64,000 nt of DNA from Malacoraja senta (lineage: Eukaryota). Below are positions 3,166-54,008 of the stretch, one piece after another. Within the stretch, counting starts at the first letter, position 1. Each line of letters opens with the position of its first letter. The translations under genes and the position numbers were made by a program. The DNA lies in contig CM075987.1 of the NCBI GenBank assembly GCA_038087875.1, forward strand, positions 27,654,001 through 27,718,000. The letters are read 5' to 3'. Under the pieces are notes generated by a model. That model was not told the origin of the DNA. It did not search any database and was given only the letters and a program-made list of their open reading frames with translations.

Positions 3166-3254
3166 TATTCGAGTCATGACATTTTAATCTCAGAGATTAA
3201 AGAGCCATTTATATGTCAGTCCATCCAATTGCCTCACTTTTAGGTAATGCTCAC

Positions 3255-3398
3255 CCTTTTAACCTCCACTTCGAAGAGAAGTGTGGCGTCAGGCGGAATT
3301 CTGTTTGGCATTCCTTGCGGTCCATATGCCTGACTTGGGGGTATAATCAGTAGCCTCTTGGAATTTTTCTTCATTCCCAGCATCCCAACTTCCCAGCC
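3255..3398 (-). CDS. FKBP15: FKBP15 exon 9 (GWEVGMLGMKKNSKRLLIIPPSQAYGPQGMPNRIPPDATLLFEVEVKR)
   Basis: tgcag| acceptor, |gtgagc donor, 144 nt. C-terminal half of the FKBP domain (GW..G..GM...R...IPP..AYG...IPP.ATL.FEVE). Confidence 0.95.
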
Positions 3399-3866
3399 CT
3401 GCAAAATAGGATAGTTGTAAAATTAAACAAAATCGCCACAATAAACCAATATGCAAATAAAACGAAAAACAAAAAACCTAACAGTAAAAAAGGTCACAAC
3501 GCTATTTGGGAGCCATAAAGAGCCAATTTATTAATCCATTTTTCAGTCTGGCCACAATTAGTGTGTGATTAGTGTCAGTGTGAAACAACAGTAGTAGCTG
3601 AGGACTTGCTGAAGCAAGTCACAGGAAAAGGCAGGAGAAAAAAAAAGTGGCAGGGTTTTTTTGTGAAAAAGACAGTAATTGCAAGATGGTTGGCCAATCA
3701 CTAATTTTCCAAAAAGACTCCATGGTAGGTGGGGTAGTAATGCTGCAAACCAAACCTAGAAATTAATGAGCGCCTGAAATAATATCTCTAAGAGAGTTTC
3801 ATCACATCACAAATGACACAGAAACCGATTAAGCCTCAAACAGTTTGGATTCACCATGTGAGCTAC

Positions 3867-3935
3867 CTTGATCACTTTTCCCGATCCAAGTTTCAGTCGC
3901 AGCAATTTGTCTTTGTTGATATTCGTGTCAAACAC
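3867..3935 (-). CDS. FKBP15: FKBP15 exon 8 (VFDTNINKDKLLRLKLGSGKVIK)
   Basis: tgcag| acceptor, |gtagct donor, 69 nt. FKBP domain VFD...LG.GKVIK. Confidence 0.95.
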
Positions 3936-4543
3936 CTGCAAAACAAAATGAAGAGATTTCGAAGATAAGACACAAAATGCTGGAGTAACTCAGCGGGACA
4001 GGCAGCTTCTCTGGAGAGAAGGAATGGGTGACGTTTCGGATGGGGGATCCTTCTTCAGTCTGAAGGGTCTCGACCAGAAACATCACCCATTCCTTCTCTC
4101 CAGAGATGCTGCCTGTCCCGCTGAGTTACTCCAGCATTTTTGTGTCTATCTTCAGTTTAAACCAGCATCTGCAGCTCCTTCCTACACATGAAGAGATTTT
4201 GGTTTCATTCCATTTCTTAGCCACTAAAGGACAAGCTTTATTTAGTTATTTTCATCATCAGCCATCCTATGATCTTTGGCAATGAATTGTTAAACTGAAT
4301 AACAAGTGAATCAAGGTTGCCTTGCATGGGCATGCTTACAGTCCACAATCAAAGGCTGCCATTATGTCATGCAGGCTTTATTTTAAATAATTGATTGATT
4401 TATCACTTAATTTCACCAAAAATAGGGAGCCAGCAAAATGTAATAATTAGCCATTGCAGCACATTCAAAATGTAGGCAGGGGTGTTGAGACGGATGTTAG
4501 TCAGCGCATAGCAATCTAGTTTCACCAACTCATTTAACCTTAC

Positions 4544-4693
4544 CTGTCCAAAGGTGTTGTTCTGGTAAAGCCACCCTGTGTACGACACTTCCAGAGAGTC
4601 ACCTGTTTCAACGGCCGGTCCGTCACCTGGGCTGAGATCCTGGACTAGCACAGACTCCAACGATGAGGTACAGTTGCATTTTGCCAAACACAC
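4544..4693 (-). CDS. FKBP15: FKBP15 exon 7 (VCLAKCN...GDSLEVSYTGWLYQNNTFGQ), start of the FKBP domain
   Basis: tgcag| acceptor, |gtaagg donor, 150 nt. Contains the FKBP-type GD.LEV.YTGW motif. Confidence 0.95.
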
Positions 4694-5056
4694 CTGCACA
4701 GGAACAAACGTACACAAAAAGAGGAAAATCTCAGAGGTATGCGAGAGAGCAGTCCTGACATCCCATCTATCTACCGGTAATTAATTTGGAGATCTTTGAA
4801 CTATCTTTAATCAGACTTTAACTTGCACTAAATATTGGACCCTTTATCTGTACACTGTGGACGGTTTGATTGTAATCATGTATAGTTTTTGCTTTGACTG
4901 GATCGTACGCAAACATAAACTTTTCCCCGTCCCTCGGTACACATGGCAATAAACTAAACTAGTGAGCTTAGTTTTTACATTTTACAATTATCCATGCATT
5001 GAAATTTAAAACATAAATTAAAACCTTTAACCCCTCAATGAGCACGTGAACTTTAC

Positions 5057-5155
5057 CTGTTTGCTGAAGTCTACCACAGCCTTGTCAGAATCAAACATGA
5101 TTGACCAGTTCTGCTTCTGATCATCGTAAAACATACAATAGTTATTGGCTTGAAC
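5057..5155 (-). CDS. FKBP15: FKBP15 exon 6 (VQANNYCMFYDDQKQNWSIMFDSDKAVVDFSKQ)
   Basis: ttcag| acceptor, |gtaaag donor, 99 nt. Contains the FYDDQ.QNWSIMF motif. Confidence 0.95.
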
Positions 5156-6306
5156 CTGAAAGGAAAAAATATTATGAGTTGAGATAAACAGAACGGCCTC
5201 CAATGGCATATTTGATCAACTACCTCATGTGGAATGGGCACGGCTAACATCACATTGCCCTTTTGTTATTAACTTCAATGAATGCACCAACTCAGGTTCT
5301 GGAATTGGTCTCATCTTCACAAAACTCAAGGTTGAATGGGAAAACCAATTAAATTGCTGGCCAGCTGCTTCCAAGTAGATATTCCACAGATTGACGCTTG
5401 CCTCTTGGAGATGGACATTAAACTAGATAAATGTCCTTGCAGCAATAACAGTTATGTGGTTGAAAGTTCCGATGTTTGGAGAAAGAAGATCCGTCTACGA
5501 TGGGAAAAGGAGTCTAGATACTGCTGAACCCATTCCAGTCAGTAGCACTGGGCCTACCATGAAGGTTGGGGAAGATGGCGGCTGCAGTGGACGGAGATTG
5601 GTGCCCATGTGGAGGCTGTGGGGTCGCCTCCCACACCCTCCACATTTTTTCCAAAGATAGATAAAATGCTGGAGTAACTCAGCGGGTCAGCACCGTCTCT
5701 GGAGGAAAGGTGAAGTTTCGGGTCGAAATCCTTCTTCAGACTGGGCTTCAGACTAACTTAAAGTCCAGTGTTGTGCTCTCTCTTGTAGGGTCCTTTTGTG
5801 TATTGATTAAGGAAGCTTTCTCAGACACATTTAACAAATCCCACACCGTCCTAACTATTTACACTATAGAGGACGCAGTCAATAACTATACAGCTATCTA
5901 TACAAGCTCCCTACACATCTGCTCCTCTAATTCATGCTGACAATTGGGAATGTGTAGGTAGGAACTGCAGATGCTGGTTTAAACTGAAATTTGGCACAAA
6001 AAGCTGGAGTAACTCAGCGGGTCAGGCAGCATCTGTGGAGAAAAGGAACAGGTGACCCGAAACGTTACCTACTCCTTTTCTCCAGAGATGCTGTCTGACC
6101 CACTGAGTTACTCCAGCTTTTTGTGTCTATCCTTGACTATTGGGAATAGCTGATGCTTGTGGACTCCAATAATTGTCTGACACATGCCTCAGCTCAAATT
6201 TGATTAATGGCCAGTAGAGCAAGATAATGAACAACCAGAGCCGGCATATCGTTCACGAGCAGATTCACATCATAACACCATAACCTTCAAAGATAAAGTT
6301 ACTCAC

Positions 6307-6381
6307 AGTAAAAGTGAAGCTTGAGGTGATGCGAGCAGCTGCGATCCGCTTCTGTTGACTAGCGTACAGCAGAACCTTGAA
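6307..6381 (-). CDS. FKBP15: FKBP15 exon 5 (FKVLLYASQQKRIAAARITSSFTFT)
   Basis: 75 nt, phase 0/0, gaag| acceptor, |gtgagt donor. Resembles YRILLYISQQQPVTVARI in the WH1-like region. Confidence 0.9.
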
Positions 6382-6834
6382 CTTCAGGGTCAGAGAACAG
6401 GAAAGTGAATCAACCTCCATGCAAAATGCACAAACCTACATTCATCTTCTTTACCAGTTGAAGAAACGCCCATATCATCCTGTCTTATGGATAGAGTGGA
6501 TGTGGAGAGGATGTTTCCACTTGTGGGACCATAGCCTCAGAATAAAAGAATGTATCTTTAGAAAGGAGATGAGGAGTAATTTCTTCAGTCAGAGGGTGGT
6601 GAATCTGTGGAATTTATTGCCACAGACGGCTGTAGATGCCAAGTCAATGGGTATTTTTAAAGTGCAGATTGACAGATTCTTGATGAGTACAGGTATCAGA
6701 GGTTATGGAGAGAAGGCAGGAGAATGGAATTGAGAGCGAAAGATAGATCAGCCATGATTGAATGGTGGAGTCGACTTGATAAGCTGAATGGTCTAATTCT
6801 GCTCCTATAACTTATGAACTTTTGCAAAACCTAC

Positions 6835-6904
6835 CTCTCCTGAAGCATGGTTTCCAAGAATAGCCGCTCCAAGCTTGCCTTGTTTCACGTACTGACCATT
6901 CAGG
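6835..6904 (-). CDS. FKBP15: FKBP15 exon 4 (LNGQYVKQGKLGAAILGNHASGE)
   Basis: tgcag| acceptor, |gtaggt donor, 70 nt, phases 2/0. Resembles NGQYVKQGKFGAAVLGNH. Confidence 0.94.
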
Positions 6905-8882
6905 CTGCAATACAATAAACGCAATTAACAGCAGACCTGGAACAGTGACCAGCACACCGTCCTTCCATCTGCTCGCCCATGCCATGTCTGAACTAGCCCT
7001 CTCTGAACCTAGTAGCAAGAAATCCAAGTATTGCTCCATTTCAAAAGGCACCAACTATCTCATCTAATGCACCTCAGAGAAACAGCTCAACGTGTAAATG
7101 TATGACTCCCACATCCCAAACGTGAGAAAGATCCATCCAATCTACGGCATGGACATCATTTTATTTAAATGTTAGGCACATCTGGGCAGGAAATAAATGC
7201 TTTTGATCCAATGGCGCCTGTATTCACATCAAGGCTCGTGGAACAGTGAGTCTGAACGCGTTTGAAGGAATGACAACCAGAAAATGTTGCCTGGGTGGAA
7301 TCTGTGCTTGAATCCTGCAAGCCATCATTAATAGTACGATGCAAGACTGGCAATGACCCTGGAGCAAGCCAGGGTTCATGTGGACGTACATAATCAAGGC
7401 AGATTCAAATATCCTGGAAAGACACAAAAAACTGGAGTAACTCAGCGGATCAGGCAGCATCTCTGGAGAGAAGGAATAGGTGATGTTTCGGGTCTAGACC
7501 CTTCTTCAGAATGAGAGTTAGGGGAGAGGGCAACGAGAGGTATGAAAAGGAATAACTAGTCTTGGTGTGACCTGCATTCAACATGGTGAGGAGCAGAGAA
7601 CAGGGACCAGGCAGCACATCATGGGATTGTCAAGACTCTCCCAGAGGCAAGCAACGTTAGATATTCAGCCTTGTGCAAATTCATTGAATTAAGCATCCAT
7701 TAGGAGATAACGTCAATATACATGTCACATTGCTATCATTTATTCATTACCATCGCACAATTATGTCTTTAATATATTGTATATTCACTATGGTTTTTTA
7801 TCAAGTCTTTGATACGATTTGGGGAATGAAAAATAATCAGAATTTTTTTTCAGAAAAGTATAAGAACAAATGGTGGACATAGAAACTCATCAATAGCAAG
7901 ATCAGCCTGTGATTCAATTAATGTGCATAAGGATGTAGATACCAGCAGAGTGACGAGAAATAAAATGTTGTTTTATAGCAAGGTTTGTGGAGAAAGACTG
8001 CTTAAACATGATCCATAACAGCCTTAAAATAGATTCCCTGGGTTAGAGTCAGTCATACAGCATGGAAATAGGCCATTTGGCCCAACTTGCCCACACCGTC
8101 TGAAGAGGGGACTCAACACGAAACGTCACCCATTCCTTCTCTCCAGAGAAGCTGCCTGTCCCGCTGAGTTACTCCAGCTTTTTGTGTCTATCTCTAACCA
8201 ACATGCTCTATCTACACTCGTCCCACCCGCCTGCATTTGGCCCATATCCTTCCAAACCTGTCATATTCGTGTACTTGAACGTTGCAATAATACCTGCCTC
8301 AACTACCTCCTCCGGCAACTTGTTCCATACACCACCCACCCTTTGTGTAAAAAAGTCACCCCTCAGGTTCCTATTAAATCTTTCCCCTTCACCTTAAACC
8401 TCTGTCCTCTGGTTCTCAATTCCCCTACTCTGGGCAAGAAACTCTGTGGGTTAGCTTAGATAAAATGCCAATCACAGCATTGTCTTTAAAATTCTTTCCC
8501 TGCCTATGCAAAATTGTTAAAAACTATGATTCCAGTGCCAGTACACTGAAAGTGATTCAGTCCCAGTGTCATAGTCAGAGTCTTACAGCGTGGAAATGGG
8601 CCCTTCGGCCCAACTTGCCCACATGGACCAACATGTCCCAAACACACTAGTCCCACCTGCCTGCGTTTGGCCCATATCCCTCTAAACCTGTCATGTCCAT
8701 GTACCTGAGTAACTGTTTCTTATTCGTTGCCATAGTCCCTGCCTCAACTACTTCCTCTGGCTGCTCATTCCAGTGCTGCAGTGTATTCACACTGTGCTTC
8801 AATGCCTTTGCCAGCTTTAACCAGTCAGTCCTCCCTTTCCCTTCCCTAGTCTCTGTCACCCTGGCCTCCGAGAAGCACTTAC

Positions 8883-8961
8883 TATTGGTATGCGTGCACC
8901 GCAGTTGCAAACAATACAGCTGGAGAGCCACCAGTAGTTGCTGGTTTCTGTGAACCCGCGC
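8883..8961 (-). CDS. FKBP15: FKBP15 exon 3 (GAGSQKPATTGGSPAVLFATAVHAYQY)
   Basis: tgcag| acceptor, |gtaagt donor, 79 nt, phases 1/2. Contains the ATAVHAY motif. Confidence 0.93.
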
Positions 8962-10481
8962 CTGCAGAGGAAAAACATTGCATTTAAAATAAACAATCCC
9001 TTTGCAACTAGACAGCTCACACTTTCAGTAGAACTATAATCTTACAGTGAATAATTATAGTAACTAATATCAGAGCTTAGGGAAAAAGATCAAGCTTAAC
9101 ACCAATTCATGTTCATAAGTGATAGGAGAAGAATTAGGCCATTCGCCCCATCAAGTTTACCCCGCCATTCAATCATGGCTGATCTATCTCTCCCTCTCAA
9201 CCTCATTCTCCTGCCATCGCCCCATAACCCCTGATACCCATACTAATCAAGAATCTCTATCCCTGCCTTAAAAACACCCATTGTCTTGGCCTCCACAGCC
9301 GTCTGTGGCAATGAATTCTACAGGTTCACCACCCTCTGACTAAAGAAATTCCTCATCTCCTTTCTAAAGGTACATCCTTTACTTCAGAGGTTATGGCCTC
9401 TGGTCCTAGACTTTCCCACTGGTGGAAACATCCTCTCCACATCCACTCTATCCAGGCCGCTCAAGAACTTCCTACGTGTTGGTGGTATTAGGCTTGTCCT
9501 GTTGCACTCAGCTCTGATGTTGGAGTGTTCCAAACTCAGCAACTGCATTATCATCCTAGTCCTTACATCATTCCCTGGAAGCAAGTGCAACCCACTGGGA
9601 CACACAGAACTCATTCACAACACAGTCAGAGGCAAATCAGTCTGATGGATTGGCACTGCAGGGAAGAATGTAGAATGATGCAATGAACCAAAGCCCCAGC
9701 ACAAAGTAAACTATTGATAAAAACAAAGAGGATAAATGGATTTTACTATATTTTACTGTAAAAACAACTGTGTGGAGCACTTGGGTAGAAACAATTCTGA
9801 GAAAGCCTGCCCCATGCAGAATGTCTGAGCAGATTTTATAAGACTGACCTAGTAAAGATACACAATCACCTTTGCTGTGAACTAGGTATAAAAACAAAAT
9901 CAAAACATATCGCCAAGGTAATTAAACTTAAAGTGATAATTAATGGTGTGTCCAAACGCTGAAACAGAAATAGCATATGCAATTTTGGCAAGGGGTAATA
10001 GTGGCCCTAGAAATGGATCAGGAAAGATTGAACTCATTTTAAGGTCCAGAGATAGAATGAAATAAAGCAGGCTTTCATTACAAAACCATATCGCTTTAAT
10101 TTAATTACAGTTTAAAATAACAAATGGGATCAGATTGATTCTGAATGCTGATGTTTACAAGGACTATGAAACAGAATCACAAAGAGAGAACTGGTACTAC
10201 TTTCTTGCAGGAATACAATCATGGAAATAAACTGCTATACGTGGAGTGAGCAAGGAATCATCTGTAGTAATGAAAATAAGTTCCAGAGAAAGGGTGAGCA
10301 ACCATCCCTTAGATCCACAAAGAAGCAGAGTTTTATCTCTGGATCTCAGCAACAAAACATAAACATTGTGGGTATATTAAACAAATGTAGTCTTCTCCCC
10401 CTTGTTTGTCTTTTAAAATATTTTGCTTAATAGGTAGAGATATAGGGGATAAAGGGCATCTTGACTGGTATATTCTGCCTA

Positions 10482-10526
10482 GAGAGAGAGAGAGAGAGAG
10501 ACACACACACACACACACACACACAC
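10482..10526. repeat. Compound (AG)n(AC)n microsatellite
   Basis: Read directly. Confidence 0.95.
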
Positions 10527-11118
10527 GTATGTTAAGCGACGCATGATGGAACACCAGCACTTCCTGAACACAGAATACAAACAAATTCCTCAGAGAATTT
10601 CCCCCAAAAATGTGCTGGGGAAATATCACAATAAATTGCTCTCAAATAATGGAAAGCAAATTAAAATCTTAAAACAGAGTTAAAATGGAAAATAACTTTC
10701 TTGAAAAGTCGCAAGTTTTTAAGTTTCTCAGAGAAATCTTAGCCTGGAGGCTGGGTGACGTTGTTCGCTATTCAAAGCAAATAGCTGAGACAGAAACAAC
10801 TGCTGATGGCTGAACTGAGGCTTATTGGGAATGTAATCTCTCTCCATAAGGCCATATTTTGCTAAATAGCTGACATTTCCCAAATGCAGATTTTGATGGA
10901 AGAACTGAGACAAACAAGTCACAGAAGATGCATAGATACAACTGCCAGCTGGCAATGTAGTAGCTGGACAAATGGAGACTGTACATCTGAATTGTTCATC
11001 GCACCTCTTATACAACCAGCATAATGATTGAAACAAAATTCTTAAGATTTTTCTTACCATGTTCGTTTGCATTACAAATCATTTTAAAATCTTACACTTC
11101 TCTAATCCAATTTACTAC

Positions 11119-11228
11119 CTGGAGCTTGTGCCCCTTTCTTTGGCTGTTTGGGGGCCGTGTACTGGAACGACTCGTTTCCCTGACCCACGGCAGCCTGGTC
11201 CATGCCGAAGAGAGAGGCCAGTTTGGCC
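11119..11228 (-). CDS. FKBP15: FKBP15 exon 2 (AKLASLFGMDQAAVGQGNESFQYTAPKQPKKGAQAP)
   Basis: cgcag| acceptor, |gtagta donor, 110 nt, phases 2/1. Matches the FKBP15 LASLFG...FQYTAPKQPKKG motif. Confidence 0.95.
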
Positions 11229-14200
11229 CTGCGGAAAGAGAGAGCAAGAATTAGCAAACCATCTGAAAGCAAGCCACAACCACCATCTGCTCCTGGTGAT
11301 CATTTACCTGTGTTACTATGAACAGCCTATGCTTTTGGAAGTACAGATCTAGACAAGCTGTTCCCACCTGTTGTTAGGCAAGTGGACCATCTAACAACTA
11401 GTGAGCGGTCCTGAGCTTCTATCTGCCTCAATGGAGACCCTTTAACCAGCCATTACTGGACTTTATCTGGCACTAAACGTTATTCTCTTTATCATGTATC
11501 TGTACCCTGTGGATAGCTCGATTGTGATCATGTATATTCTTTCTCCTAACTGTTTAGCAGGCTTTTCACTGTGCCTCGGTACACGTGACAATAAACCTAA
11601 ACTAACTGAAAAATAAATCAAGACAAACCTCAAAATAGGCATGAAATTTAAATTGAAGGTAGACACAAAATGCTGGAGTAACTCAGCGGGTGAGGCAGCA
11701 TCTCTGGAGAGAAGGAATGGGCGACGTTTCGGGTCGAGACCCTTCTTCAGACACATTTCGGGTCTTCTTCAGACACATTTCGGGTCGAGGCCTTCAGACT
11801 TGGTAACAGCAGTACTGGACAATTGAAGCTGAAATATTCACTTGCAAAATAATCCATTTACAGGTTGTCTAAAATTGGTTGTGTATCACTTTCGCCTAGT
11901 AATTAACTTGTACATTTGGCACACATTATTATCTGTCTGAGGTTTCAACTCTACCAGTACCACTGCACTGATAAGGAATTATAGGCTAATGCAGGAAGCA
12001 GGATTTGTGAAACAAAAGAGAAATAAATCTGATAATCCTCTCCTACACACAATAGGGACGACTAACACCAATGCAAGTCTTATTACTTAAAATTTACAGA
12101 ATAATTACATGGCATTGAGCCAAAATAGTCTAATCCAATGTTATATCCAGCACGCCAGTTAGCAATCCTCACTCGGCCAGCTGTATTTATCTGTTGAATG
12201 CGATTTATCCACTTTTGAACCATTGCTTACATATTCACAGTCAGTCAAAGAATACTGTTAAAGACGGGTGTAGCTAGGAAAGATGGTTCAGGAACAAGTC
12301 TCGCGCACAAAGACCTAAGACCAAGCAGAAAGAGCTCTCCCACTGGCCAACCGTTCATCGCACCAGTAGCAGTAAAGTCTACATTGCACTTTCCATGGAC
12401 ATGCAGCGGTCGGTTCAATACTGACCCATGGGTTTCGTTCCACATGTACTCACTGCCCCAACGCCCCAGCATCTCAGCCTGACGATCGCACAGAATATCA
12501 GCACAGAGCCACAGCTCAACAATACAAAATATCACACGGTCGTTCAGAATGCAACAGCCTCATTGTAAAACAAACAAGACAGAAATGCAAGAGTCCATCG
12601 AGCTAGGAGTCCCTCATGGCTGCCTGCGCGCAAACTAATTGAAAGCACAAGATGTGGCTTAATAGAGTTAGAGAACGCTCCACACAAGGTCAGGCATGTT
12701 TAAACACAGTGGGACTAAACTGCTTTCATTCACTCCAGTATTACAAAATACTTTTGATTTGAAAACCGCCACAACTCCATTCGAAATCTCACACTACTGG
12801 AGGAAAGTTAAGTTACAAAGCTTCAGCTTCCTACATTTCTTTAAACCCAAGCCAATTTGGAATATTGTGAACAGTAATTTGGATATTGTGAGCAGTTTTG
12901 GGCCCCCTATCTGAGGATGGTGGTGCTGGCTTTGGAGAGGGTCCAGAGGAGGTTTACGAGAATGATCCCAGGCATGAGTGGGTTAACATATGGTGAGAGT
13001 TTGAAGGCTCTGAACCTTCGTAGTTTAGAAGGATAAGGGGGGGACCTCATTGAAACTTACCAAATAATGAAAGGTCTGGTACAGTGAATGTGGAGAGGAT
13101 GTTTCCACAAGTGGGAGAGTCTAGGACCAGAGACCATAGCCTCAGAATAAAAGGACATACTTTTAGAAAGGAGATGAGGAGGAATTTCTTTGCTCAGTAC
13201 CAACCCATAACTAAGGAATCAGTAAAATCTGAGACAAATGGCTTGATGCATCACCCTGGTTAACTAATACAAAAAACAATGAAACATTTACTGGACATAG
13301 ACATTTCAAAAACAGGGTGTCAAATTGTGATAAAGCCAGTTTAATGCAATCCTGATGGACATTTACTGGAGTTTTTCAACTGAAGGTCTTTTTACTCTCT
13401 CGCATTTCTTTCTGAAGTTTAGATGCCAAACACAACTGCAGACGTGACAAACTCCAGCACAAAACAGTTACATAAACTGACACACCTTACACTCTACTAC
13501 CCTACTTTTAGTTTTCCACCCCATTCTATCTTCTGCTTCCTACATTGTTCCAACAAAACTGAACATAAGCTTGCCCATCTCATCTAACAGCTCAGAATAT
13601 TATAGCCTTCAGGATTCAATATTGAATTGCACAGGTTATAGACAATAGACAATAGGTGCAGGAGTAGGCCATTCGGCCCTTCGAGCCATCACCACCATTC
13701 AATGTGATCATGGCTGATCATCCCCAATCAGTACCCTGTTCCTGCCTTCTCCCCATATCGCCTGAATCCGCTATCAGATAATTACCAATGTCAGTCATGC
13801 ACCATGTTGCACAGTTATAGAGCAACAGGCCATTCAGCCCACCATGCCCATGCTGACCATCAAATTCCTATTTATACTAATCCTTTTCATTCTGTCACAA
13901 CTCTAATCCTGGATCATATCATGAGTTCTTTATAACATGAAGATAATTTACTTCAATCAGTCTTCCTGAATCGCTAATGGTATTCAAATGACTTACGTCA
14001 AAACATTTTGGTGGAAACATTTTTCTCTTCTGGTATTTCACGTTTAATTTAATGCCCGTATATACCGCACCAGACAAATCTTTGGCACCATTTCAGCTGG
14101 CACCATCAGTGTCTTTCAATCTCCTGGTCTCCACCCTATCACAGACTATCCCTTCTGTTCTCTCCACCCATCATCCTTTTCGCTTGTAACTTTAAATTTG

Positions 14201-14387
14201 TTCAGTTCAAAATGACACAGTTCTGAATAAAAGTCAATCAGAGAGTGATACAGTGTGGAAACAGGCTCTTCGGCCCAACTTGCCCTCACCGGCCAACATG
14301 ACCCAGCCACACTAGTCCCACCTGCCCGCATTTGGTCCATATCCCTCCAAACCTGTCCTATCCATGTACCTGTCTGTTTATTAAAGT

Positions 14388-14624
14388 GATCACCCCGTAT
14401 ACTAGCACTAGCCTACAGTACACACTGGGGACAATTTACAGAAGCCAATTAACCTACAAACCTGTACATCTTTGGACTGTGGGAGGAAACTGGAGCACCA
14501 AAAGAAAACCCACACAGTCACAGGGAGAACGCATAAACTCCATACAGACAGTACCCATAGTCAGGATTGAACCCGGTCTCTGGCGCTGCAAGGCAGCAAC
14601 TCTATCACTGCACCACTGTGCCGC
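14388..14624 (-). mobile_element. V-SINE (HE1-like)
   Basis: Reverse complement of the same SINE head and V-domain. Confidence 0.78.
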
Positions 14625-14649
14625 CCAGATAGGAAATTGACAATAGGAA

Positions 14650-15260
14650 AGGTATGTCAGGCTGTTCATCGACTACAGCTCAGCATTCAACACCATCAAC
14701 TCTTCCAAACGTCATTACATTTAGGGAACTGATTCTCTGCTCCTCCCTGTACAACTAGATCTTTGACTTCATCGGCAGACCTCAATCAGTATGGATTGGC
14801 AACACCTCCTCCTCCTACTTGCTGACCATCGGGGTTATGTGCTCAATCCCCTGCTCTACACCCATGACTGCGCAGTCACACACAGTTCAAACGCCAATTA
14901 TACCACCATCATTGGCTGAATAACTGGCAAGGAAGTCAGCGTGCAGGAGGGAAGTTGATAAGCTGGCTGAGTGGCACCAGCACAACAATCTTGCTCTCAT
15001 CACTGGAAAGAACAAAGAGCTGATTGTTGACCTCAGGATGGGAAAGCCTATGGACCGTGCAGTGTTCACTGGCAGGATGGCGGTGGAGAGAGTCAACAGC
15101 TGCACGTTCCTGGACAACCACAAAACCGATGATCTGTCTGATTTCAGCACATTGATGCAACTACAATGAAAGCTCACCAATGCCTCTACTTCCTCAGTGG
15201 GCTGCAAATATTCAAGAACAGCTTTTTCCCATCAAACATCAATTTCTTGAACCACATCGT
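14650..15260 (+). mobile_element. Degenerate Rex1-like LINE RT fragment
   Basis: gtcaggctgttcatcgactacagctcagcattcaacaccatc (VRLFIDYSSAFNTI) and ctctacacccatgactg (LYTHDC). Many disruptions. Confidence 0.7.
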
Positions 15261-15778
15261 ACAACCCTAACCAAAACGCTACTCTTGGAGCAACCATCTT
15301 AATGCAGAGTCTGAACCACTAAAGTCTCTACATTACAAAGGTTGTTTACTGTCATAATCTATCATAATCATAATCTAGTTTACATGAAATACCTGCAAAT
15401 TGAAAGAAGTAAAAAAAATACATGGAACAAAATTTAATTATTTAACTCTTCTTACATTTAAATTATTTTTAGTTTCATTTCTCCATTTTCAGTTTCATTT
15501 CCCCTTCAATATGACTACAGAGTAATATGTTTTGGACAATTGTAATTTTAATTGCTCTTAATTATGTTAAAACACATGTTTTCAGCCCAGCTTTCTTTGG
15601 GAAGCTGAACCACTGCTAAACAGATCATTTCAAGACAATAGTGGTGGAGCAATGATGCGGTGTGTAGGGGTTTGTTGACGGGGATATTAACTCTACCTTC
15701 ACTGGCCTGTAAGAAAGATTGTTATATGTAATTAGGGCGGGACTGGACATTTCCTTGCCCAACTGGAATATTTCAGAG

Positions 15779-16047
15779 TCACAGTGGCGCAACGGTAGAG
15801 TTGTTGCCTTACAGCGCCAGAGACCTGGATTCGATCTTGACTACCGGTGCTGTCTGTATGGAGTTTGTACGTTCTCTCTGTGACCGCGTGGGGTGCTCCG
15901 GTTTCCTCCCACATTCCAAAGACGTAAGGTTCGTAGGTTAATTGGCTTTGGTAAAAATTGTAAATCGTCCCTAGTGTGTGTGGAATAGTGTACGGGAATC
16001 GCTGGTCAGCACGGACTCGGTGGGCTGAAGGGCCTTTTTTCAGCTGC
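15779..16047 (+). mobile_element. V-SINE (HE1-like)
   Basis: gtggcgcaacggtagagttg head plus V-domain. Confidence 0.8.
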
Positions 16048-16242
16048 ATTGCTCCCCAACGTCATGTCATCTGCTCTGCATTCTGTAACTGTTTTACATG
16101 TTGTCTTTTCAAATAGATAAGAAATGTCTGTTACAAACAATGTCTCAATACTGTTGTCATTTATGGTATAATATCATGCACTTCAATATTATCCCAGAAA
16201 ATGTCCAAAATGTACATGTACATATAATGTCTCTATAACGCT

Positions 16243-17240
16243 AAAGTGGGTGGTATCATAGACAGTGAAGATGGTTATCAAACATTGCAGCATATTCATG
16301 ATCAGTGGGGCATGTGGGCTGAGGAGTGGTTAATGGAGTTTAATGCAGATAAGTGTGACATGTTGCATGTTTGGAAGTTAAACCAAGGCAGGCTCTTTAG
16401 TAAATGGCAGGGCCCTGGGGAGTGTTGAAGAATGGAGGGATCTGGGAGAGGAGGTACATTGTTTCCTGAAACTGCCATCACAGGTAGATCAGGTGGTCAA
16501 GAAGGCTTTCGGTATATTAGCTTTCATCAGTCAAGGTACTGAGTATAAAAGTTGGGATGTTATGTTACAGCTGTACAAGACGTTGGTGAGGCTACATTTG
16601 GAATATTGTGTTCACTTTTGGGTCACTCTGCTATAGGAAGGATGTCATTCAGCTGAAAAGAGTGCAGAGAAGATTTACAAAGATGTTGCCAGGACATGAG
16701 AGCCTGAGGTAAAAGGACAGGTTGGGCAGTCTAGGACTCAGTCTGAAGAAGGGTTTCGGCCCGAAACGTTGCCTATTTCCTTCGCTCCATAGATGCTGCT
16801 GCACCCGCTGAGTTTCTCCAGCATTTTTGTGTACCTAGGACTCTATTCGTTGGAACGCAGGAGGATAAGGGGCGGGATCTTAGAGAGGTGTATAAATTAT
16901 GAGGGGAATAGTTAGGGTGAATGCACAGAGTCTTTTACCAAGAGTAGGAGAATCAAGAACCAGGGGACAAAGGTTTAAGGTGAGAGAGGAAAGATTTAAT
17001 AGGAACATGAGGGGCATCTTTTTCACACAGTGGGTGGTAGGTGTATGGAACGAGCTACCAGGGGAGATAATTGAGGCAGGTACTATAACAAAATTTAAAA
17101 AACATTTGGATAGGTACATGGATAGAAAAGGTTTAGAGGGATATGGGCCAAACACAGGCAGGTGGGGAAAAGCGAAGATGGGGATCTTAGCCAGCATGGA
17201 TATGTTGGGCCAAACGGCCTGTTTCCATGCTGTATGACTC
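16243..17240 (+). mobile_element. CR1-clade LINE 3' fragment interrupted by a 95-bp insert
   Basis: W.MEFNADKC, LVR.HLEYCV and SRTRGQRFKV...FFTQ.VV.VWNELP motifs. Confidence 0.85.
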
Positions 17241-17799
17241 CACAAATAATATCACAATATAGCTGTCATGTATGAGAAAATGTCCTAACCTTTAATTAAA
17301 CTGCAGAAAATGTCTAAACTCATGCAATGCAATCAGGTAGGTGAAGTATGAAACATTGTGATACGCTGAAAGCCCAGTTAACGTAAATAGGCATAGATAG
17401 ATCATGACCCTAAAACTATCTTCAAGAGCACAACCCCTCAAAGTTGCAGGTATGTATTTGTTTCATATCTGTATTTTATTCTGCTGATTATGGATTCCAT
17501 CCTTCCTGTGGTCATCTGTTGCCAACCCTGTTTTGTTCTGGCCTTCTCTATCTTTCAGTCTGAAGAGTTTCAACCTAAATTTTCACCTATTCCTTTTCTC
17601 CAGAGATAGATAGATAGATTCCTTTATTGTCATTCTGATGCTGCCGCTGCCTGTCGAGCTGCTGCCTGTCGAGCGTGAAGCCAGGGACACATATTCAAGG
17701 GACAAGAGTTTACATATTCTGTTGTGCTGCTGCAAATAAGAATTTCATTCTTTTATCTGGGACACATGACAACAAAACACTCTGGACTGACTCTTGAAG

Positions 17800-18370
17800 A
17801 TAGACACAAAATGCTGGAGTAACTCAGCGGGACAGGCAACATCTCTGGAGAGAAGGAATGGATGACATTTTGGGTCGAGACCCTTCTTCAGACCCGGGCA
17901 TCAGGCCACACGGGCGGGGAGGGGCATGGAAAGAGAGAGAGGGAAAGCAAGGGTTACTTGAAGTTAGAGAAATCAATCCGCTGTTCCAGATCTGGACTCC
18001 TATGTATCGGTAATACCACACGCAGGCTCAGCGATCGTTTTGCTGAACAACGCTGCTCAGTCCCAATAAACCTACCTGATCTCCCGGTTGCTAAACACTT
18101 TAACTCCCCCTGCCATACTGACCTTTCTGTCCTGGGCCTCCTCCACCATTAGAGTGAGGCCCAGTGCAAATTGGAGGAACAGCACCTCATATTTCACTTG
18201 GGCAGCTCACACCCCAGCTGCATGAATATTGACTTTTCTTTGAGCTGCATCTCCTTTGATCTGTCGTTTTAACACCTGACTCTCAGTCTGAAGAAGGGTC
18301 TCGACCAGAAACGTCACCTATTCCTTCTCTCCACAGATGCTGCGTGTCCCGCTGAGTTACTCCAGCTTTT
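17800..18370 (+). mobile_element. Penelope-like fragment (degenerate GIY-YIG at ~17978-18235) flanked by inverted terminal repeats
   Basis: IRCSRSGLLCIGNTTRRLSDRFAEQ...PVAKHFNSP. Oppositely oriented copies of the Penelope-associated repeat at ~17800-17892 and ~18285-18370. Confidence 0.7.
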
Positions 18371-18759
18371 CGATATTCACAGCACTGGGTTGTAAACTGC
18401 CCAAGTGTCAAGAGTGTTTTATTGTCATATGTCCCAGATACAATGAAATTCTTACTTGCAGCAGTAAAACACAATATGTAAACATAGTACACTGTAAACA
18501 ATATAATAAATGAGAAAAAAAAGTTCAGAGTGTGTGTGACTATACACATACTCACAAATACACATAGATCAAATATATATAGATCATATATATATATACA
18601 TATATACGCACATAAAAAACATACGATAATAGTGCAATAATAATCAATGTAGTTCAGAGGTTATTAGAGGAAGAGCAGGAGGTTATTAGAAGAGACACAG
18701 AGATATGAAGGGAAATATCAAAATGAGGACAGGATAAGGGACAGGAAGGCAGCCGCGGG

Positions 18760-19095
18760 CCGAGCGGCTCCCGGTGTTGGGGGCGCCATGTTACTGCGGG
18801 GCGGGGCGGGGGGGAGAGAGGGAAGGGGACTCACTGACCCGCCACTGGCTGAGAAGAAATCGACGTCGTCCTCCTCGGCGCCGAACATCGCCATGACAGG
18901 CGGCGCCGTGTCCGCGTCTCCGCGCCCGCCGGCCGGCAGCGTCAGCGTCAGCGTCAGCGTCAGCGTCAGCTCACCCGTCACGTGCTGCCGCAAAGCTGGA
19001 GCCGAGCTGCCGCAAAGCGCGGTGACTGCGCCCGCCCGGTCGCCGGGGGACACGGGTTGGATCCGATCCCTACCTCCGGCACTGGGTGTCGGACA
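18760..19095 (-). promoter_or_regulatory. FKBP15 CpG island / promoter / 5'UTR
   Basis: Very GC/CpG-rich around the start codon. GC boxes, a (CAGCGT)5 array at 18937-18970 and an E-box GTCACGTG at 18977-18984. Confidence 0.75.
18839..18888 (-). CDS. FKBP15: FKBP15 coding exon 1 ([17 protein letters not shown]; in-frame upstream ATG at 18894 would add MA)
   Basis: Resembles the vertebrate FKBP15 N-terminus (MFGAGDEDDTDFLSPSGG). Lies in a CpG island. The phase-2 donor GG|gtcagt is the one that joins exon 2 in frame. Confidence 0.9.
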
Positions 19096-20397: not shown

Positions 20398-21431
20398 TAA
20401 GTTAGCATGTTCTCACTGTGACCCTCCGTGGGTTTCCTCCGGGTGCTCCGGTTTCCCCCGTACACTCCAAAGACATTACAGGTTTGAAGGTTAATTGGAT
20501 AACTGTAAATTGCCCCTGGAGTGGATGAGGGAGTGGGGGGGATCCGGCTCACATAAAACTAGTGTCAACGGGTGATCGATGTGGAGTTTGTATCTGTCAT
20601 CCCTCCCTCTTATTTCCCTCTTATTTTGCAAGGGCAGCTTGCAACCCAGCGGTATGAATATTGATTTCTCTAATTTCAAGTAACCCTTGCTTTCCCTCTC
20701 TCCATTCCTCCCCAACCTAGTTCTCCGACTAGTTTCACTGTCCTCATTAATTTTACTGTTAGTGTGCCTCGTTGTCATTCTCCCTTCTGCCAACAACGAG
20801 CCATTGTACATTTCCTTGATCATTGTCTGTAAGATGTATTCAGTTTACCAACTCATCTGAAATATTACAGACAGTACAGCACTCCCTCAATGATTAGTAT
20901 GTCTGTTTTGTTCATGAGTCTGGGATGGGACTTGAACCAAAAGATTCCTACAGGAGTCCTTGGCTGAACCCCAGGTATCTTCAGAAGATAATGAACCAAG
21001 TATAATAACACCATTGATTGACATAAAAAGCTGGAGTAACTCAGCGGGATAGGCAGCATCTCTGGAGGGAAGGAATGGGTGACATTTCGGGTCAAGACCC
21101 CTCTTCAGAATGAGAGTCAGGTGAGAGGGAAACTAGATATGGAAGGGTAAGGTTTGAAAGTGACATATCAAAGCACACGACGATCAAGGAAATGTAGAAT
21201 GGTTCAATGTTCACTGAGGGGAAGGTGACAACGAGGCATGTAAACAGTAAAATTAATCAGGACAATGAAACTCGGAGAACTAGGGAGGGGGTGGGATGGA
21301 GAGAGACGGGATGCAAGGGTTAGTTGAAGTTAGAGAAATCGTCAGAGGAAGGGTTTCGGCCCGAAACGTTGCCTATTTCCTTCGCTCCATAGATGCTGCC
21401 GCACCCGCTGAGTTTCTCCAGCACTTTTGTC

Positions 21432-21464
21432 CAAAGATCATAGTCTATATCTCTATCATCTTTG
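21432..21464. mobile_element. 33-bp TIR-only transposon remnant/footprint with 8-bp TSD cttttgtc
   Basis: cttttgtc-caaagatcatagtctatatctctatcatctttg-cttttgtc. The host repeat is uninterrupted in other copies (~22575, ~25300). Confidence 0.85.
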
Positions 21465-21653
21465 CTTTTGTCTACCGAAGAATTATGCTGGTCAGGGGGG
21501 AGGATGGATTGATTGCATTGCAGGTCGGGTCCTCCCATCTTCCTCCAATCTCCCTTCTCACCTCCCTCCTCTTTCCTCCCCTCTCCTCCCTCCCTCCCTC
21601 CTTCCCTCCCATCTCTCGCTCCCTCTCTTCCCTCCTCTCACCACCCTCCCATC

Positions 21654-21684
21654 CAAAGATACTAGAGCTCCTCTAGTATCTTTG
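21654..21684. mobile_element. 31-bp TIR-only transposon remnant/footprint with 8-bp TSD ctcccatc
   Basis: ctcccatc-caaagatactagagctcctctagtatctttg-ctcccatc, with perfect 14-bp inverted ends. Confidence 0.85.
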
Positions 21685-21702
21685 CTCCCATCTTCCTCTG
21701 AT

Positions 21703-21739
21703 CGAAGATCCCATAGCGGAGCTTGCTGTAGGATCTTTG
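21703..21739. mobile_element. 37-bp TIR-only transposon remnant/footprint with 8-bp TSD cctc(t/c)gat
   Basis: cctctgat-cgaagatcccatagcggagcttgctgtaggatctttg-cctccgat. The left 20 nt match 49453-49472 at 19/20. Confidence 0.8.
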
Positions 21740-21868
21740 CCTCCGATGACCTTCGGGCGGGCAAGGAGTAGCCGCCCACGTGATGCCCGAGTGACCCACG
21801 TGGCAGCGTGCTGCCCGCGTAGTGACGTCAACGCGTAGCTCCCGCCCCCTGGGTGACAGCGTGCTGCC

Positions 21869-21877
21869 CAAAGATTG
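21869..21877. mobile_element. 9-bp transposon footprint (caaagattg) with 8-bp TSD gtgctgcc
   Basis: gtgctgcc-caaagattg-gtgctgcc. Neighbouring tandem promoter units lack the insert. Confidence 0.7.
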
Positions 21878-21999
21878 GTGCTGCCCCCCGCATTGACGTC
21901 AACGCGTAGCTCCCGCCCCCCTTGGTGTGGCAGCGTGCTGCCCGCGCAGTGGCAATCACGTCGTCGCCCCCCCCCCCCCCCCCCCCACCCCCCGACGTG

Positions 22000-22090
22000 G
22001 CGCGCGGACGCTGCAGTGAGGAGGACGTGGTCACTGTGGGTCCGAGCTCCGGCTGAGGGAGGGAGAGAGCGGAGAGCGGCCCGGGGCGAG
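22000..22090 (+). other. SLC31A1: Probable non-coding exon 1 of SLC31A1 (start approximate)
   Basis: Ends in a consensus donor GAG|GTAAG inside the CpG island and has no ATG. Vertebrate SLC31A1 has a non-coding first exon and a long first intron. Confidence 0.65.
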
Positions 22091-23828
22091 GTAAGGTAAG
22101 GTAAGGTGACCCTCCCTGAGGGGCAGGCTAGGTCAGGCCTGTCAGCGGTTACAGGAGGCAGGAGAATGGGGTTGAGAGGGAAAGGCAGGTCCGAGCCACG
22201 ATTGAATGTGTAGGAAGGAACTGCAGGTGCCGGTGTACACCGAAGATAGACACAAAGTGCTGGAGTAACTCAGCGGGACAGGCAGCGTCTGTGGAGAGAA
22301 GCAATAGGTGACGTTTTGGGCCGAGACCCTTCTTCAGATTGTTTAAGAAGGTACTGCAGATGCTGGAAAATCGAAGGTGGACAAAAGTGCTGGAGAAACA
22401 CAGCGGGTGCAGCAGCATGTATGGAGCGAAGGAGATAGGCAACGTTTCGGGCCGAAACCCTTCTTCAGATTGATCGACGGATTGATTGACCTCAATCTGA
22501 AGAAGGGTTTCGGCCCGAAATGTTGCCTATTTCCTTAACTCCATAGATGCTGCTGCACCCGCTGAGTTTCTCCAGCACTTTTGTCTCCCTTCTTCAGATT
22601 CACCGAAGATAGACACAAAATGAGTCTGAAGAAGGGTCCCGACCCGAAACGTCACCCATTGCTTCTCTCCACAGATGCTGCCTGTCCCGCTGAGGTATTC
22701 CAGCTTTTTGTGTCTGTCCATGATTAAATGGCGGGGCAGCCTCGATGGGCCGAATGGTCCAATTCTGTTCCTGGAACTCATAACCTTGGCTGAGTACGTG
22801 GAGGGCGAAGCGCCCACCTGGTGTCATGTCCTTTGATGTTTCTCCACATAACGGGCATTGCCCTCTCCAGCGGCTTTCAGTCTGGAAATGTGGTGTAAAG
22901 TTGCTTTAGAGGTGGCCTGAGGTCGCTGGTGGAAGCTGCACACTTTCTCCTGATTTGGGTTGTGCGAAAGACAGACACAAAAAACTACATCTACAGTTTA
23001 AACAGCATTCTGCAGTTCCTCCTTACACATTTGGATTATGCAATGTCTTCGGAGGACAAACTGCAGATAAATTACTTTCTAAAATGTAAAAGTAGAAAAT
23101 GCTGAATAAACTAAGCAAGGCCGGCAGCAGTGTGAGGGCAAAACCGTTAACAGCACAAATTGAACACCTATTCATCAGATCGGAAAAAAGACAGAAATCA
23201 GACTTTTTGTGTGTTATATTTTTGCATGGGAATAGTGTCTGTACGGGAGCCTTCTTAATCACAAACGAAAAAATGTGCTTTTTAATGATAAAGTGATGGT
23301 AGTCACTTATAGTGTGGAAAAAAATATGCACCAGTAAACTCGCAGCAAGTCCAATAATCAGCAAAGTATTAGTTTTACTGTTTTCATAATTTTTGTTGTT
23401 TTAGGGATATTGAGCAGTGAAAATGAGAATTCTGCCTCTTTGGATGATCATGTAGGACCTTTGTGTCAATGTGTGTGTCAACATTTCCAACGCTTCCTCC
23501 TTTCAGACATAGACATTCCAAATATCAGCATTCCTCTCCCCTCACTCCATCCCCCATATGCCTAGTGAATGCCGGTGAGAAGTGACGATTTAGGATCCTG
23601 TTCCTATCTCTTGGCTTCACGCTTAATTATGGATCTGCTCAACCCCTGATCGTTAGATATACGAGCAGAATTAGACCATTCAGCCCATCGCGTCTACTCC
23701 GTCATTCAATCGTAGCTGATCTATTTTTCCATCTCAACCCCATTCTCCTGTGACTACAGGCCCAGGGCCATCAAATACTCATACGTTAACCCAATCATCC
23801 CCAGGATCACTCTCTGAAACATTTTTTT

Positions 23829-48245: not shown

Positions 48246-49336
48246 ATGAACTATAAAATATGAATGGAGCAAAGCACGCAGACCAAAACTCCTTGACGTT
48301 TGTGCTTTGAGTTCTCCTTTGCTTGTGTTCTAGTCCCTATATCCCTTGAGATGAGCAATGAAATTATATTGTTTAATATTTTCCAACAATGCTTTGTTTC
48401 TGACACTCAGAGGCATGAAACTGTTTGATGGAAAGCTGCCAGTTTGTGCCGTACCGTGTGTGTGTGTGTGTGTGTGTTCTGCTGCTGCATCACACATCAC
48501 TTCATGATGTAATAATTAGATTGAGTGAAGGTCTAACAATGCTCGGGACAGCAATAGTATGAGGTGCAAGGCTAAGTCATTAGACCTCACTTCTTGCTAG
48601 AACCACGCTTGTAATTGTAAAGCAACATCCAGCCAATTTACTTTTGAAAGGCCTTCTATGTTGTAAATGCATAGTCACCTCTGTGGATTAATGTCGGCCA
48701 AGATAGTATGAATATTGATTTCTCTAACTTCAAGTAACCCTTGCATCCACTCTCTCTCCATCCCTCCCCCACCCAAGTCATACTAGCTTCAAAGTCATCT
48801 TGTTGAGTCTCATTGTCTGTAACTCGTTTTAACCGAGCCCAATGGCCTGTTTCTTTTATCATCGTTACTTTTTTGCATATCTTTAATTCGTTTTATTTCT
48901 CTCTATATCACTGTCTATTTCTCGTTCCCTTTTCCCCGATTCTCAGTCTGAAGAAGGGTCTCGACCCGAAATGTCACCTATTCCTTTTCCCCAGAGATGC
49001 TGCCTGTCCCGCTGAGTTACTCCAGCATTTTGTGTCTATCTACAGGAAGAACACCTCAAATAAGCTTCTTTTATATCCGTCTGATGGGGTACGTTCATTT
49101 AATATCTCATCTTAAAGAGAGCACACCAACACTGTGGCATGAAGTGCTGCACTGAAGTATTAAACTGTCATGCGCTCAAGTCCCTGCATTGGGCTTCTGA
49201 CTTTTCAAACCAGTGTGGGGGTGGGAGATTGCAACATTCACGTTTCGACGAATGCAATCATCCTGGCGTGCACAATCAAATAAGATCAAATAGAACAAGT
49301 TGTCGTAAAACTTTAGGCTGGGCACGCCGTACGCAT

Positions 49337-49720
49337 CAAAGATCCTATAGCAAGCAAGATAGATCACTCGACGAAAAAGACGTAGTACGGTCATGGGCAG
49401 ATTCATGGGTAATTTTTGGCCCCATTTCCGTAACCGGCTTCCGTCTCCCCACCAAAGATCCCATAGCGGAGCAAAGATACTAGTGCGGAGACGGAAGCCG
49501 GTTACGAAAACATCCTCGTAAAAATAAAAGTTCTTTGGTAAAAATCTTCTCCTCATTTTCAGAACACAAACTGTTCCCCCGCAACGTTGATTACACTGCG
49601 GGTCGGGTCGGGTTACTGAAATGGATGAAAAAAAGGCCCACATTCTGTTCCGTTGCATACTTCACGTCAGCCCATAGCATTTAACAGGAGTGGTCTAACT
49701 TGCTCCCTATAGGATCTTTG
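49337..49720. mobile_element. 384-bp non-autonomous DNA transposon (MITE) with ~33-bp TIRs and 8-bp TSD; P-element-like (hAT not excluded)
   Basis: Left end caaagatcctatagcaagcaagatagatcactc; right end reverse-complements to caaagatcctatagggagcaagttagaccactc. TSD gtacgcat at 49329-49336 and 49721-49728. Confidence 0.9.
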
Positions 49721-51254
49721 GTACGCATGAAGAAGACCAGTGTGGAATGATTTTGTACAACCTCAGACAAAAGGGTCTGAGGTGAGAGAATCGCAGTGCT
49801 TTCAGAGAGGGAATCGCAGTGCTTTCATTGTGCTTGCAGACAAGCATCAATTTATATATATTATAATACCCTAAATGTTTCCAACTTTCAGAGATCCAAA
49901 GGTCAAACAATGAAGCTGCTTCACCTACATTTGAATGACGTGAGGACGGAACTCTGCTGCATTTTTATTATTAGCCCCATCAATATCATAAAGATGGGAT
50001 TGTGTGGAGTGGAACAGAGGCAGAATGGTTGCTCTTCCAAATCCAATTGTTTAAAATTCATTTGAGTAAACAAGCGCTTATTGCCTGACTGTGCATTGAA
50101 TGGCCAGTGCCATAATCAAATCAGTTGCCGTTGTAAACCAGTTGCTCTCATCATCATGTTGCACTAAACCTAATTCGTGCTCCGCTATCTCCTGAAACCT
50201 GATTTAATTTCAAATGTCAGGTAGAGCTCCAAGGCTTAAAAGCCAATCTGATTTGGTCAAACAGGTGAATCAATGTCTGTTTATAACATTAGGAAGACAG
50301 AACTTTCAGTTGGAACCTGATTAAGAGATTATCTTATGCTCGAGATTCTTGTCTCAAAAATGGATTAGGGAGTGGCGTTTGTCAGATATTGTTAAAATAG
50401 ATTGCTTGCCATTGTGTGTTTTTGCAAAAACTAATAAAGGTCTGAGGAATGGTCTCGACAGAAACGTCACCCATTCCTTCTCTCCAGAGATGCTGCCTGC
50501 CCCGCTGAGTTACTCCAGCATTTTGTGTCTTGTCTTCGGTGTACACCAGAATCTGCAGTTCCTTCCTACAGATAAATACTTTCCGTATTGTGAGCATTTT
50601 CAAGCATATTTTGCACATTCTGGGGTGAAAATTTAAAATGTAGGTCTGCTCCTTAGTTGGTTTGATCGGATTTGCCCAGGTGGGCGAAATATATTACAAG
50701 ATCTAAAGTCCCCCAGTTTCCAAGCTGGAGGGAGGGGGAAGAGGTGTGTGGAGAGGAAGAGAGGGGCAAGAGTAATAACTTGGTCATCCTAGTCTTAGCA
50801 TTAATGCTTGGGAAACATAAAAAATAGGTGTAGGAGTAGGCCATTCGGCCCTTTGATCATGGCTGAGCATCCAGAATCAGTACCCCGTTCCTGTTTTCTC
50901 CTCATGTCCCTTGATTCCATTAGCCCTAAGAGCTATGTCTGAATCTCTTGAATACATTATTTTTCCTAAAATCAATAAAACAACTAGAATTGTTTGTAAC
51001 GCTAACCATTGTTTGGGAGAAGGAGGTCCTTGCGTCCAATGAAAGGAATTAATATGTGGGTTAATAGGATCGGTAAATGGACTTGCCTTCAGACAGGGTA
51101 AAAGATTCACAGTTTTGAATAGTCCTAGGAATGAGTTTGAAGGGCCAGTTTCCATGCTGTATCAGTTAACTGCTTTTAATATCGTGGGGAATAAACTGGC
51201 GTCAATTAGAGCATGAATGCAGTCACTTTTTATCCTCCCACCCCATCTCATTTG

Positions 51255-51671: not shown

Positions 51672-51764
51672 ATGAACGGTTCGATGGGTCACGATCATGA
51701 TCACAGCAGCATGTCCATGGACCACTCTACGGCTGCACCAAGCCACGGCACTCATGGCATGATG
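51672..51764 (+). CDS. SLC31A1: SLC31A1/CTR1 first coding exon (exon begins 51630): MNGSMGHDHDHSSMSMDHSTAAPSHGTHGMM
   Basis: His/Met-rich copper-binding ectodomain. ttctcag| acceptor at 51629, phase-0 |gtgagg donor. Confidence 0.92.
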
Positions 51765-51884
51765 GTGAGGACTCCCTCCAACCTTGTTACCTCGGGCTCT
51801 GCAGTCAATCTGTCCTGTTCAGTTACTTTGTTATTGCCACCTTTACTGAGCTACAGTGAAATGCTTAGCTGATACAACAAGATA

Positions 51885-53914: not shown

Positions 53915-53916
<2 letters not shown>

Positions 53917-54005: not shown

Positions 54006-54008
<3 letters not shown>

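Follow-up and report, generated by a model that had tools for sequence, protein, structure and literature searches.

Short inserts at a CpG island upstream of the SLC31A1 coding exons in Malacoraja senta as probable excision scars of a vertebrate P-element family

Four short inserts between divergent genes

The window, by which we mean the whole stretch of DNA that was analysed, comprises 64,000 nucleotides of the Malacoraja senta genome (GenBank assembly GCA_038087875.1, contig CM075987.1, positions 27,654,001 to 27,718,000 of the forward strand). It holds two divergent genes, a cluster of four short inserts flanked by 8-bp repeats (TSDs), and a longer element of the MITE type, arranged as follows.

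3243..18894, minus strand: divergent gene; FKBP-domain exon 3243-3422, first coding exon near 18894
21424..21472: insert 1 with both TSDs; the 33-bp insert is 21432-21464, TSD CTTTTGTC, exact
21501..22500: CpG island, CpG o/e 0.72-0.78, GC 0.57-0.67
21646..21692: insert 2 with TSDs; the 31-bp insert is 21654-21684, TSD CTCCCATC, exact
21695..21747: insert 3 with TSDs; the 37-bp insert is 21703-21739, TSDs CCTCTGAT/CCTCCGAT, one mismatch
21861..21885: insert 4 with TSDs; the 9-bp insert is 21869-21877, TSD GTGCTGCC, exact
49329..49728: non-autonomous P-family MITE with TSDs; 384 bp at 49337-49720, TSD GTACGCAT, exact
51672..58929, plus strand: SLC31A1 (CTR1) coding exons, with Ctr Pfam matches and a His/Met-rich N-terminal exon

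The SLC31A1 coding exons give Ctr Pfam matches at 57683-57853 and 58738-58929, and the His/Met-rich N-terminal exon lies at 51672. On the minus strand, an FKBP_C match at 3243-3422 (E 4e-16; one match among 100 frames) and a first exon seen by eye in a second CpG island near 18.9 kb mark a gene that we take to be FKBP15, head-to-head with SLC31A1. A GT/CT-type microsatellite of 1.3 kb (19090-20400) lies between the two divergent CpG islands. Inspection by eye also places a splice donor at 22090/22091, a candidate end for a non-coding SLC31A1 exon 1, which makes such an exon likely. The CpG island at 21501..22500 is likely to represent the SLC31A1 promoter together with this exon, an assignment built on CpG content, the splice donor and gene order, and the 384-bp MITE would then fall within SLC31A1 intron 1. 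The insert cluster lies at the edge of the island and inside it. The first-pass annotation had located the cluster in the SLC31A1 promoter; the gene is borne out by its coding exons with their Ctr Pfam matches, and the promoter role of the cluster is a putative one.

The region around insert 4 (21740-21962) is single-copy genome-wide. Four public runs searched with 21645-21960 gave no spanning contig and yielded neither a full nor an empty orthologous allele from another species, and the RNA run had no coverage there; insert 1 and the putative exon 1 had zero read coverage from public runs, and the largest share of the locus in any run was 0.10.

A scan of the window recovered the four inserts as annotated (33, 31, 37 and 9 bp, each within its own 8-bp repeat), and a pattern scan for TSD-flanked C(A/G)AAGA..TG inserts found none in the 64 kb beyond these four and the MITE. 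In insert 1, a 12-nt CATAG-type arm and a 14-nt GATAG-type arm flank seven apparently templated bases; these unequal arms fit an element (L212:425-2450) that has a GATAG end and a CATAG end. The host of insert 1 is a SINE-like repeat, of which three other copies (22395, 22570 and 25315) are empty, as had been claimed. The same nucleotide of this host repeat is occupied at ten sites genome-wide, seven being full-MITE starts (six of them closed, at 392-412 bp) and three being short inserts of 12, 31 and 33 bp, a pattern that reflects independent insertions. Insert 2 joins a 14-nt and an 18-nt ACTAG-type arm with a 1-nt overlap, both arms being identical to the ends of P elements of 5-7.7 kb. Insert 3 is a full-length join of two unequal MITE ends (20 + 19 - 2 nt), and its end type also bounds a second family of P transposases. 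Insert 4 sits in one of three tandem units, the two neighbours of which (21804 and 21931) are empty, again as claimed; it matches the ends over 7 + 2 bases, plus its TSD, and is probably a heavily trimmed scar, the least certain of the four.

The ends of the inserts are drawn from at least three end subfamilies. The statement that they match the MITE at 49337-49720 holds in full for insert 3, but past the first 7 bases the other inserts depart from the MITE's own subfamily. The clustering of the inserts in 462 bp is not due to chance, as two exact matches in that interval have P ~7e-7 at the genome density of 2.6 exact matches per Mb. Very short TSD-flanked inserts starting with CAAAG numbered 15 in the 1.44 Mb examined, against none for each of four control motifs and eight for a fifth, the reverse complement.

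P transposases within elements that share the ends

The inserts had been read as scars of P-type excision, with the expectation that an autonomous element would carry the same ends. Elements with these ends do encode a THAP plus P-type DDE transposase. Five copies (L077, L078, L079, L081 and L083), each 5046-7679 bp long and bounded by 8-bp TSDs, have ACTAG ends, terminating in CAAAGATACTAGAGGA(A/G), which is the arm of insert 2. Besides the THAP domain, the coding elements carry the P HTH, RNase H and GTP-binding domains. The THAP domain (C2CH) matched PF05485 with E 1.4e-10 on exon 2 of L077, its first two Cys lying in exon 1 by eye; the split RNase H matched PF21787 and PF21789, and the GTP-binding insertion domain matched PF21788. 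The sole match in the PDB was the fly P transposase (6P5A, E 2e-44), with the catalytic triad D230, D303 and E531 of the fly enzyme aligned. Seven of the eight GTP-binding residues listed for the fly protein in a part of PMC7776569 are identical by eye (K385, V401, S409, F443, D444, N447 and D528), and K400 is replaced by R. Every sequence feature examined places the family in the P superfamily.

A PF21788 profile search of the genome gave 150 scored matches of 312 candidates, and the best 30 fall mostly into one family with 88-99% protein identity. A second transposase family, with about 75% identity, is bounded by ends of the type seen in the MITE and in insert 3 (L160 is closed; L162 and L167 have one end). 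Two of 15 coding copies (L076 and L083) look intact, with three exons in phase and a frame open through E531, a call that assumes a GC donor at intron 2 and leaves two of the 15 copies unparsable. The frame of L077 is preserved only if intron 2 is of the GC-AG type. On small contigs, many transposase copies (L086, L087, L090-L094 and L168) have one common left flank and an adjoining tandem array, and so were amplified inside a larger repeated unit. Among the best 120 of 284 protein matches none was named THAP9, and the few named proteins were from molluscs, at 36-42% identity.

All 44 full elements and 131 short-insert loci have 8-bp TSDs (with at most one mismatch, by selection), and the target motif (G/C)TnnnnA(C/G) is common to scars and full elements. 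The P transposase inserts these elements with an 8-bp duplication.

Length ceiling and placement of the cut

The 131 distinct short-insert loci reduce to 68 flank clusters, which were chosen by end patterns, with the ACTAG subfamily over-represented and carriers deliberately over-sampled. The intact ends all consist of CAAAGAT, 9-12 variable bases and CAAGAT (reading CAAAGAT...AG-C-AAGAT), and their inner C occupies position 18, 19 or 20. Among the 136 arms of the 68 independent inserts, 43 stop at this inner C, 10 stop one base before it and none passes it; the inner motif is present at 0 of the 131 loci. Scar sizes predicted from the 44 full elements, as the sum of the two inner-C positions minus 2, are 34, 36, 37 and 38 bp and never 35. 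The largest clean sizes observed in the 68 clusters are 34 (n=11), 36 (n=3), 37 (n=4) and 38 bp (n=2), with none at 35 bp. Ends of the 19/20 type, found in 26 of the 44 full elements, predict a scar of 37 bp, the size of insert 3. Two clusters are longer (47 and 56 bp) and contain internal duplications.

Pattern searches gave a similar limit. ACTAG fusions were at most 34 bp in 50 of 50 among the matches listed, the pattern permitting 54 bp, and CCTATAG fusions were at most 38 bp in 48 of 51, the other three having inserted bases that are apparently templated. At 39-61 bp, the first 50 matches (75.7 Mb) were by eye nearly all host repeat or chance, with about three single fusions. The excess of matches in this range (1488 against 543 in the control) was rejected as a set of scars, being by eye mostly a host SINE-like repeat. 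A palindrome of 57 bp with CAAAGAT ends and no TSD, lying in a GC-rich repeat (L178:2001-2057 and L179:2001-2057), accounts for two of the 50 matches listed. The first-pass annotation had set a flat length distribution against its own reading; the distribution found is non-flat, with a ceiling at 34-38 bp.

We propose that the four inserts, which agree letter for letter with the ends of a multi-subfamily P-element family, are with high probability scars left by that family at its donor sites, and that the sharp length ceiling would record the position of the transposase cut. Excision would involve a cut at the tip of the element on one strand and, on the other strand, a cut 18-20 nt further in, immediately behind the C of AG-C-AAGAT or one base before it; because this C can be read from either arm, the cut may lie at 17-19 nt, and its placement is resolved to within 1 nt. 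A 3-prime single-stranded stub would stay on each flank. Pairing of the stub tips through their terminal GC during end joining would give 34, 36, 37 or 38 bp, and inner microhomology or short templated fill would give shorter or patched scars. The proposal that the inserts are two end stubs is upheld, with a revised length of 18-20 nt (or 17-19) in place of 15-18. Because the inner motif, present in every intact end, is missing from the scars, these would be immobile. Later slippage has shortened some of them in one carrier repeat, where a 38-mer decays to 33, 29 and 21 bp and empty paralogues are also present, so that sizes below the ceiling are partly post hoc and not all are records of repair. 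A junction test of an 18- versus a 17-nt overhang, based on joins at the C positions, was dropped because later slippage yields the same products.

Given that the inserts are scars, we lean towards an inner cut that is set by a landmark, AG-C^AAGAT, rather than by a fixed ruler. Under such a rule, a single element could have an 18-nt cut at one end and a 20-nt cut at the other, and the extra bases at 20-type ends would be absorbed by a single-strand loop. The length-variable end bases fall near position -14 to -18, a DNA stretch that is described as disordered in the fly P transposase structure (PMC7776569, in part), so such play would be allowed.

The competing cut rule bears on cut placement only and is compatible with the donor-site scar reading: the transposase would cut at a fixed distance of about 20 nt from the tip, and one or two unpaired bases would then be trimmed to the GC microhomology. 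We give it a smaller but appreciable chance. For the fly enzyme, one stagger of 17 nt is described (PMC7776569), trimming to microhomology is common in end joining, and the ten arms that end one base short of the C would fit; yet 18- or 19-type ends keep zero bases past the C in all 136 arms, and a 36-bp hybrid scar is matched by a 595-bp MITE (five copies) whose two ends are of the 18 and the 20 type. More distant is the idea that the inserts are extreme internal deletions made without a long stagger, through aborted sister-chromatid gap repair or through slippage of a stem onto the AGCT palindrome. Full-length joins do sit on a 2-nt GC microhomology, slippage inside scar palindromes is visible among paralogous copies, and aborted gap repair predominates in fly germline assays (PMC2895639). 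However, aborted repair ought to give a continuum of sizes, whereas the 39-61 bp range is nearly empty and 25 paired intact elements have a minimum length of 375 bp, and the similarity between ends extends well beyond the inner C, a point that no arm passes. We consider this explanation improbable.

It is also very improbable that the palindromes of 31-38 bp are minimal elements that transpose as such. Identical 34-mers occur at six unrelated sites with different TSDs, and the copies of some units run into the hundreds (105 and 903 flank-plus-end matches), but among the copies fetched the high-copy units share one TSD and flank, as passengers would. The junctions are moreover heterogeneous, the inner CAAGAT..CCACTC block retained by 44 full elements is missing, and two 18-nt inner cuts would overlap inside a 34-mer. 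Many identical copies had been named as an outcome that would speak for transposing units. The identical copies found either share one TSD and flank, as passengers in other repeats, or recur as products at unrelated sites, and hence do not point to such a unit. Scarcely credible, finally, is a hAT family, which likewise makes 8-bp TSDs. The 8-bp TSD and the CAAAG start fit the hAT end motif, but hAT excision is not known to leave end sequence at the donor site, and the coding elements found with exactly these ends carry a P transposase.

Genomic distribution and relation to known P systems

An exact-pattern count across the genome gives 5055 fused ends of 22-44 bp, compared with 1001 in the reversed control, and about 42 of the first 50 matches (18.4 Mb) look real by eye. 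ACTAG-type fusions number 476 and CCTATAG-type fusions 261, each against 0 in the control, and intact ends number 4437 against 65, with about 2200 intact elements by exact pattern. Passenger copies inflate such raw pattern counts, and their use as event counts was therefore rejected. The MITE, about 399 bp long with 8-bp TSDs, has 2439 candidates genome-wide, of which 40 were scored, at about 90-93% identity. Scar types like those of the window were also found in unrelated flanks in three of the four public runs, from three other organisms.

One 32-bp scar has 105 carrier copies, with one TSD and flank in the copies fetched (30 of 105), and one 28-bp scar has 903 exact flank-plus-end matches, with 30 of 30 fetched copies at 28 bp and sharing one TSD and flank. 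The carrier of the 28-bp scar is a GC-rich element starting with CAGGG (L276:~310-2200, L273-L302), a hAT-like end. A full element in a sister copy of a scar lineage was found in 0 of 30 copies in each of three carrier repeats, sampled at 30 of 105, 30 of 903 and 30 of 116 copies. In one carrier repeat (L260, L266, L271, L304-L333), scars have accumulated at three or more separate sites, and its paralogues include empty, scarred and shortened versions. The interior of the MITE (window 49453-49545; L110, L173 and L211) holds further end remnants, including, in its relatives, TSD-flanked ones of 5 bp and 12 bp, from which it follows that the family inserts into itself.

The enrichment at CpG islands that the first-pass annotation foresaw is seen, island-like contexts being far above background. 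With island-like defined as CpG o/e >= 0.65 and GC >= 0.55, such flanks surround 16 of 66 scars, 10 of 348 background tiles (P 5e-8) and 2 of 40 full elements (P 0.015), the last sample being biased to one MITE family. They also surround 9 of the 33 scars whose flanks are unique among the DNA examined, some of which share one island. Repeat flanks occur at 33 of 66 scars. A neighbouring scar lies within 500 bp of 9 of the 66 (six loci, two of which are tandem duplications), where 0.003 would be expected for each. A partial listing of ORFs near island-like scars identified no genes, so that promoter status genome-wide is based on CpG content, with CpG richness serving as a proxy for promoters. 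Scars likely accumulate at open CpG islands because P elements favour such sites and because a 30-bp scar would be tolerated there, unlike a 400-bp element; P elements prefer promoters according to the review PMC7776569. The surplus of scars over full elements in islands may stem from easier excision or from selection. By their concentration in CpG islands the scars suggest that transposon traffic rewrites likely promoters, including that of the copper importer. At one further locus (L043:1501-1723), two scars lie in tandem CRE-like TGACGT units upstream of an ATG and a splice donor, a pair that resembles the cluster of the window.

The type of scar is known from fly experiments, and what differs here is the length of the stubs and its variation. 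In Drosophila melanogaster, excision junctions consist of TSD, stub, microhomology or templated insertion, stub and TSD, with 17-nt tails, and the scars have the same architecture and 8-bp TSD as the inserts here (PMC2895639, in part). The fly transposase also has a THAP domain, a split RNase H and a GTP-binding domain, with the aligned DDE, as here (part of PMC7776569). In contrast, the stubs here are 18-20 nt (or 17-19) against 17 in the fly, their length varies from subfamily to subfamily and from end to end within one element, and the end sequence is unrelated to the fly P element ends. The scars here are, moreover, natural, number in the thousands and are about as common as intact elements or commoner, whereas those of the fly come from the laboratory. 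Zebrafish Pdre2/zfTHAP9 is likewise a vertebrate P-like system with an 8-bp TSD and internally deleted copies; in the portion of PMC10983969 that describes it, however, Pdre has 13-bp TIRs of different sequence and about 50 copies, compared with about 2200 intact elements (exact pattern) and at least 150 transposase matches here. Domesticated THAP9 genes have the protein superfamily in common with the transposase here, the copies of which, unlike those genes, are bounded by TIRs and TSDs and are multi-copy. A search of literature listings, covering sources other than Repbase, Dfam and most subscription journals, turned up no report that describes this family or naturally occurring P scars on a genome-wide scale.

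The long staggered cut is the hallmark of P transposases, and a part of PMC7776569 states that its order and mechanism are unknown. The natural 18-, 19- and 20-nt ends and the intact-looking enzymes offer substrates for testing what positions the inner cut; the variable ends suggest that the P cut mechanism holds in a vertebrate, and an intact P transposase from a vertebrate might serve as a laboratory tool. The scars record past excisions, and their size of 20-38 bp is likely to be missed by repeat annotation. Were the landmark reading true, thousands of scars would together map natural cleavage and preserve, as fossils, the places where germline chromatin was open. The broader proposal, of a young and possibly active vertebrate P transposon with a landmark cut instead of a 17-nt ruler, and with scars that serve as both cleavage map and germline open-chromatin record, we regard as evenly balanced between right and wrong.

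The coding P elements (L076:2776-2888 and 9910-9945; also L077-L095) have scars of their own in intron 1. Near their 3-prime end lies a chimeric scar composed of the arms of two subfamilies between flanks that do not match, the product expected of hybrid excision involving neighbouring elements.
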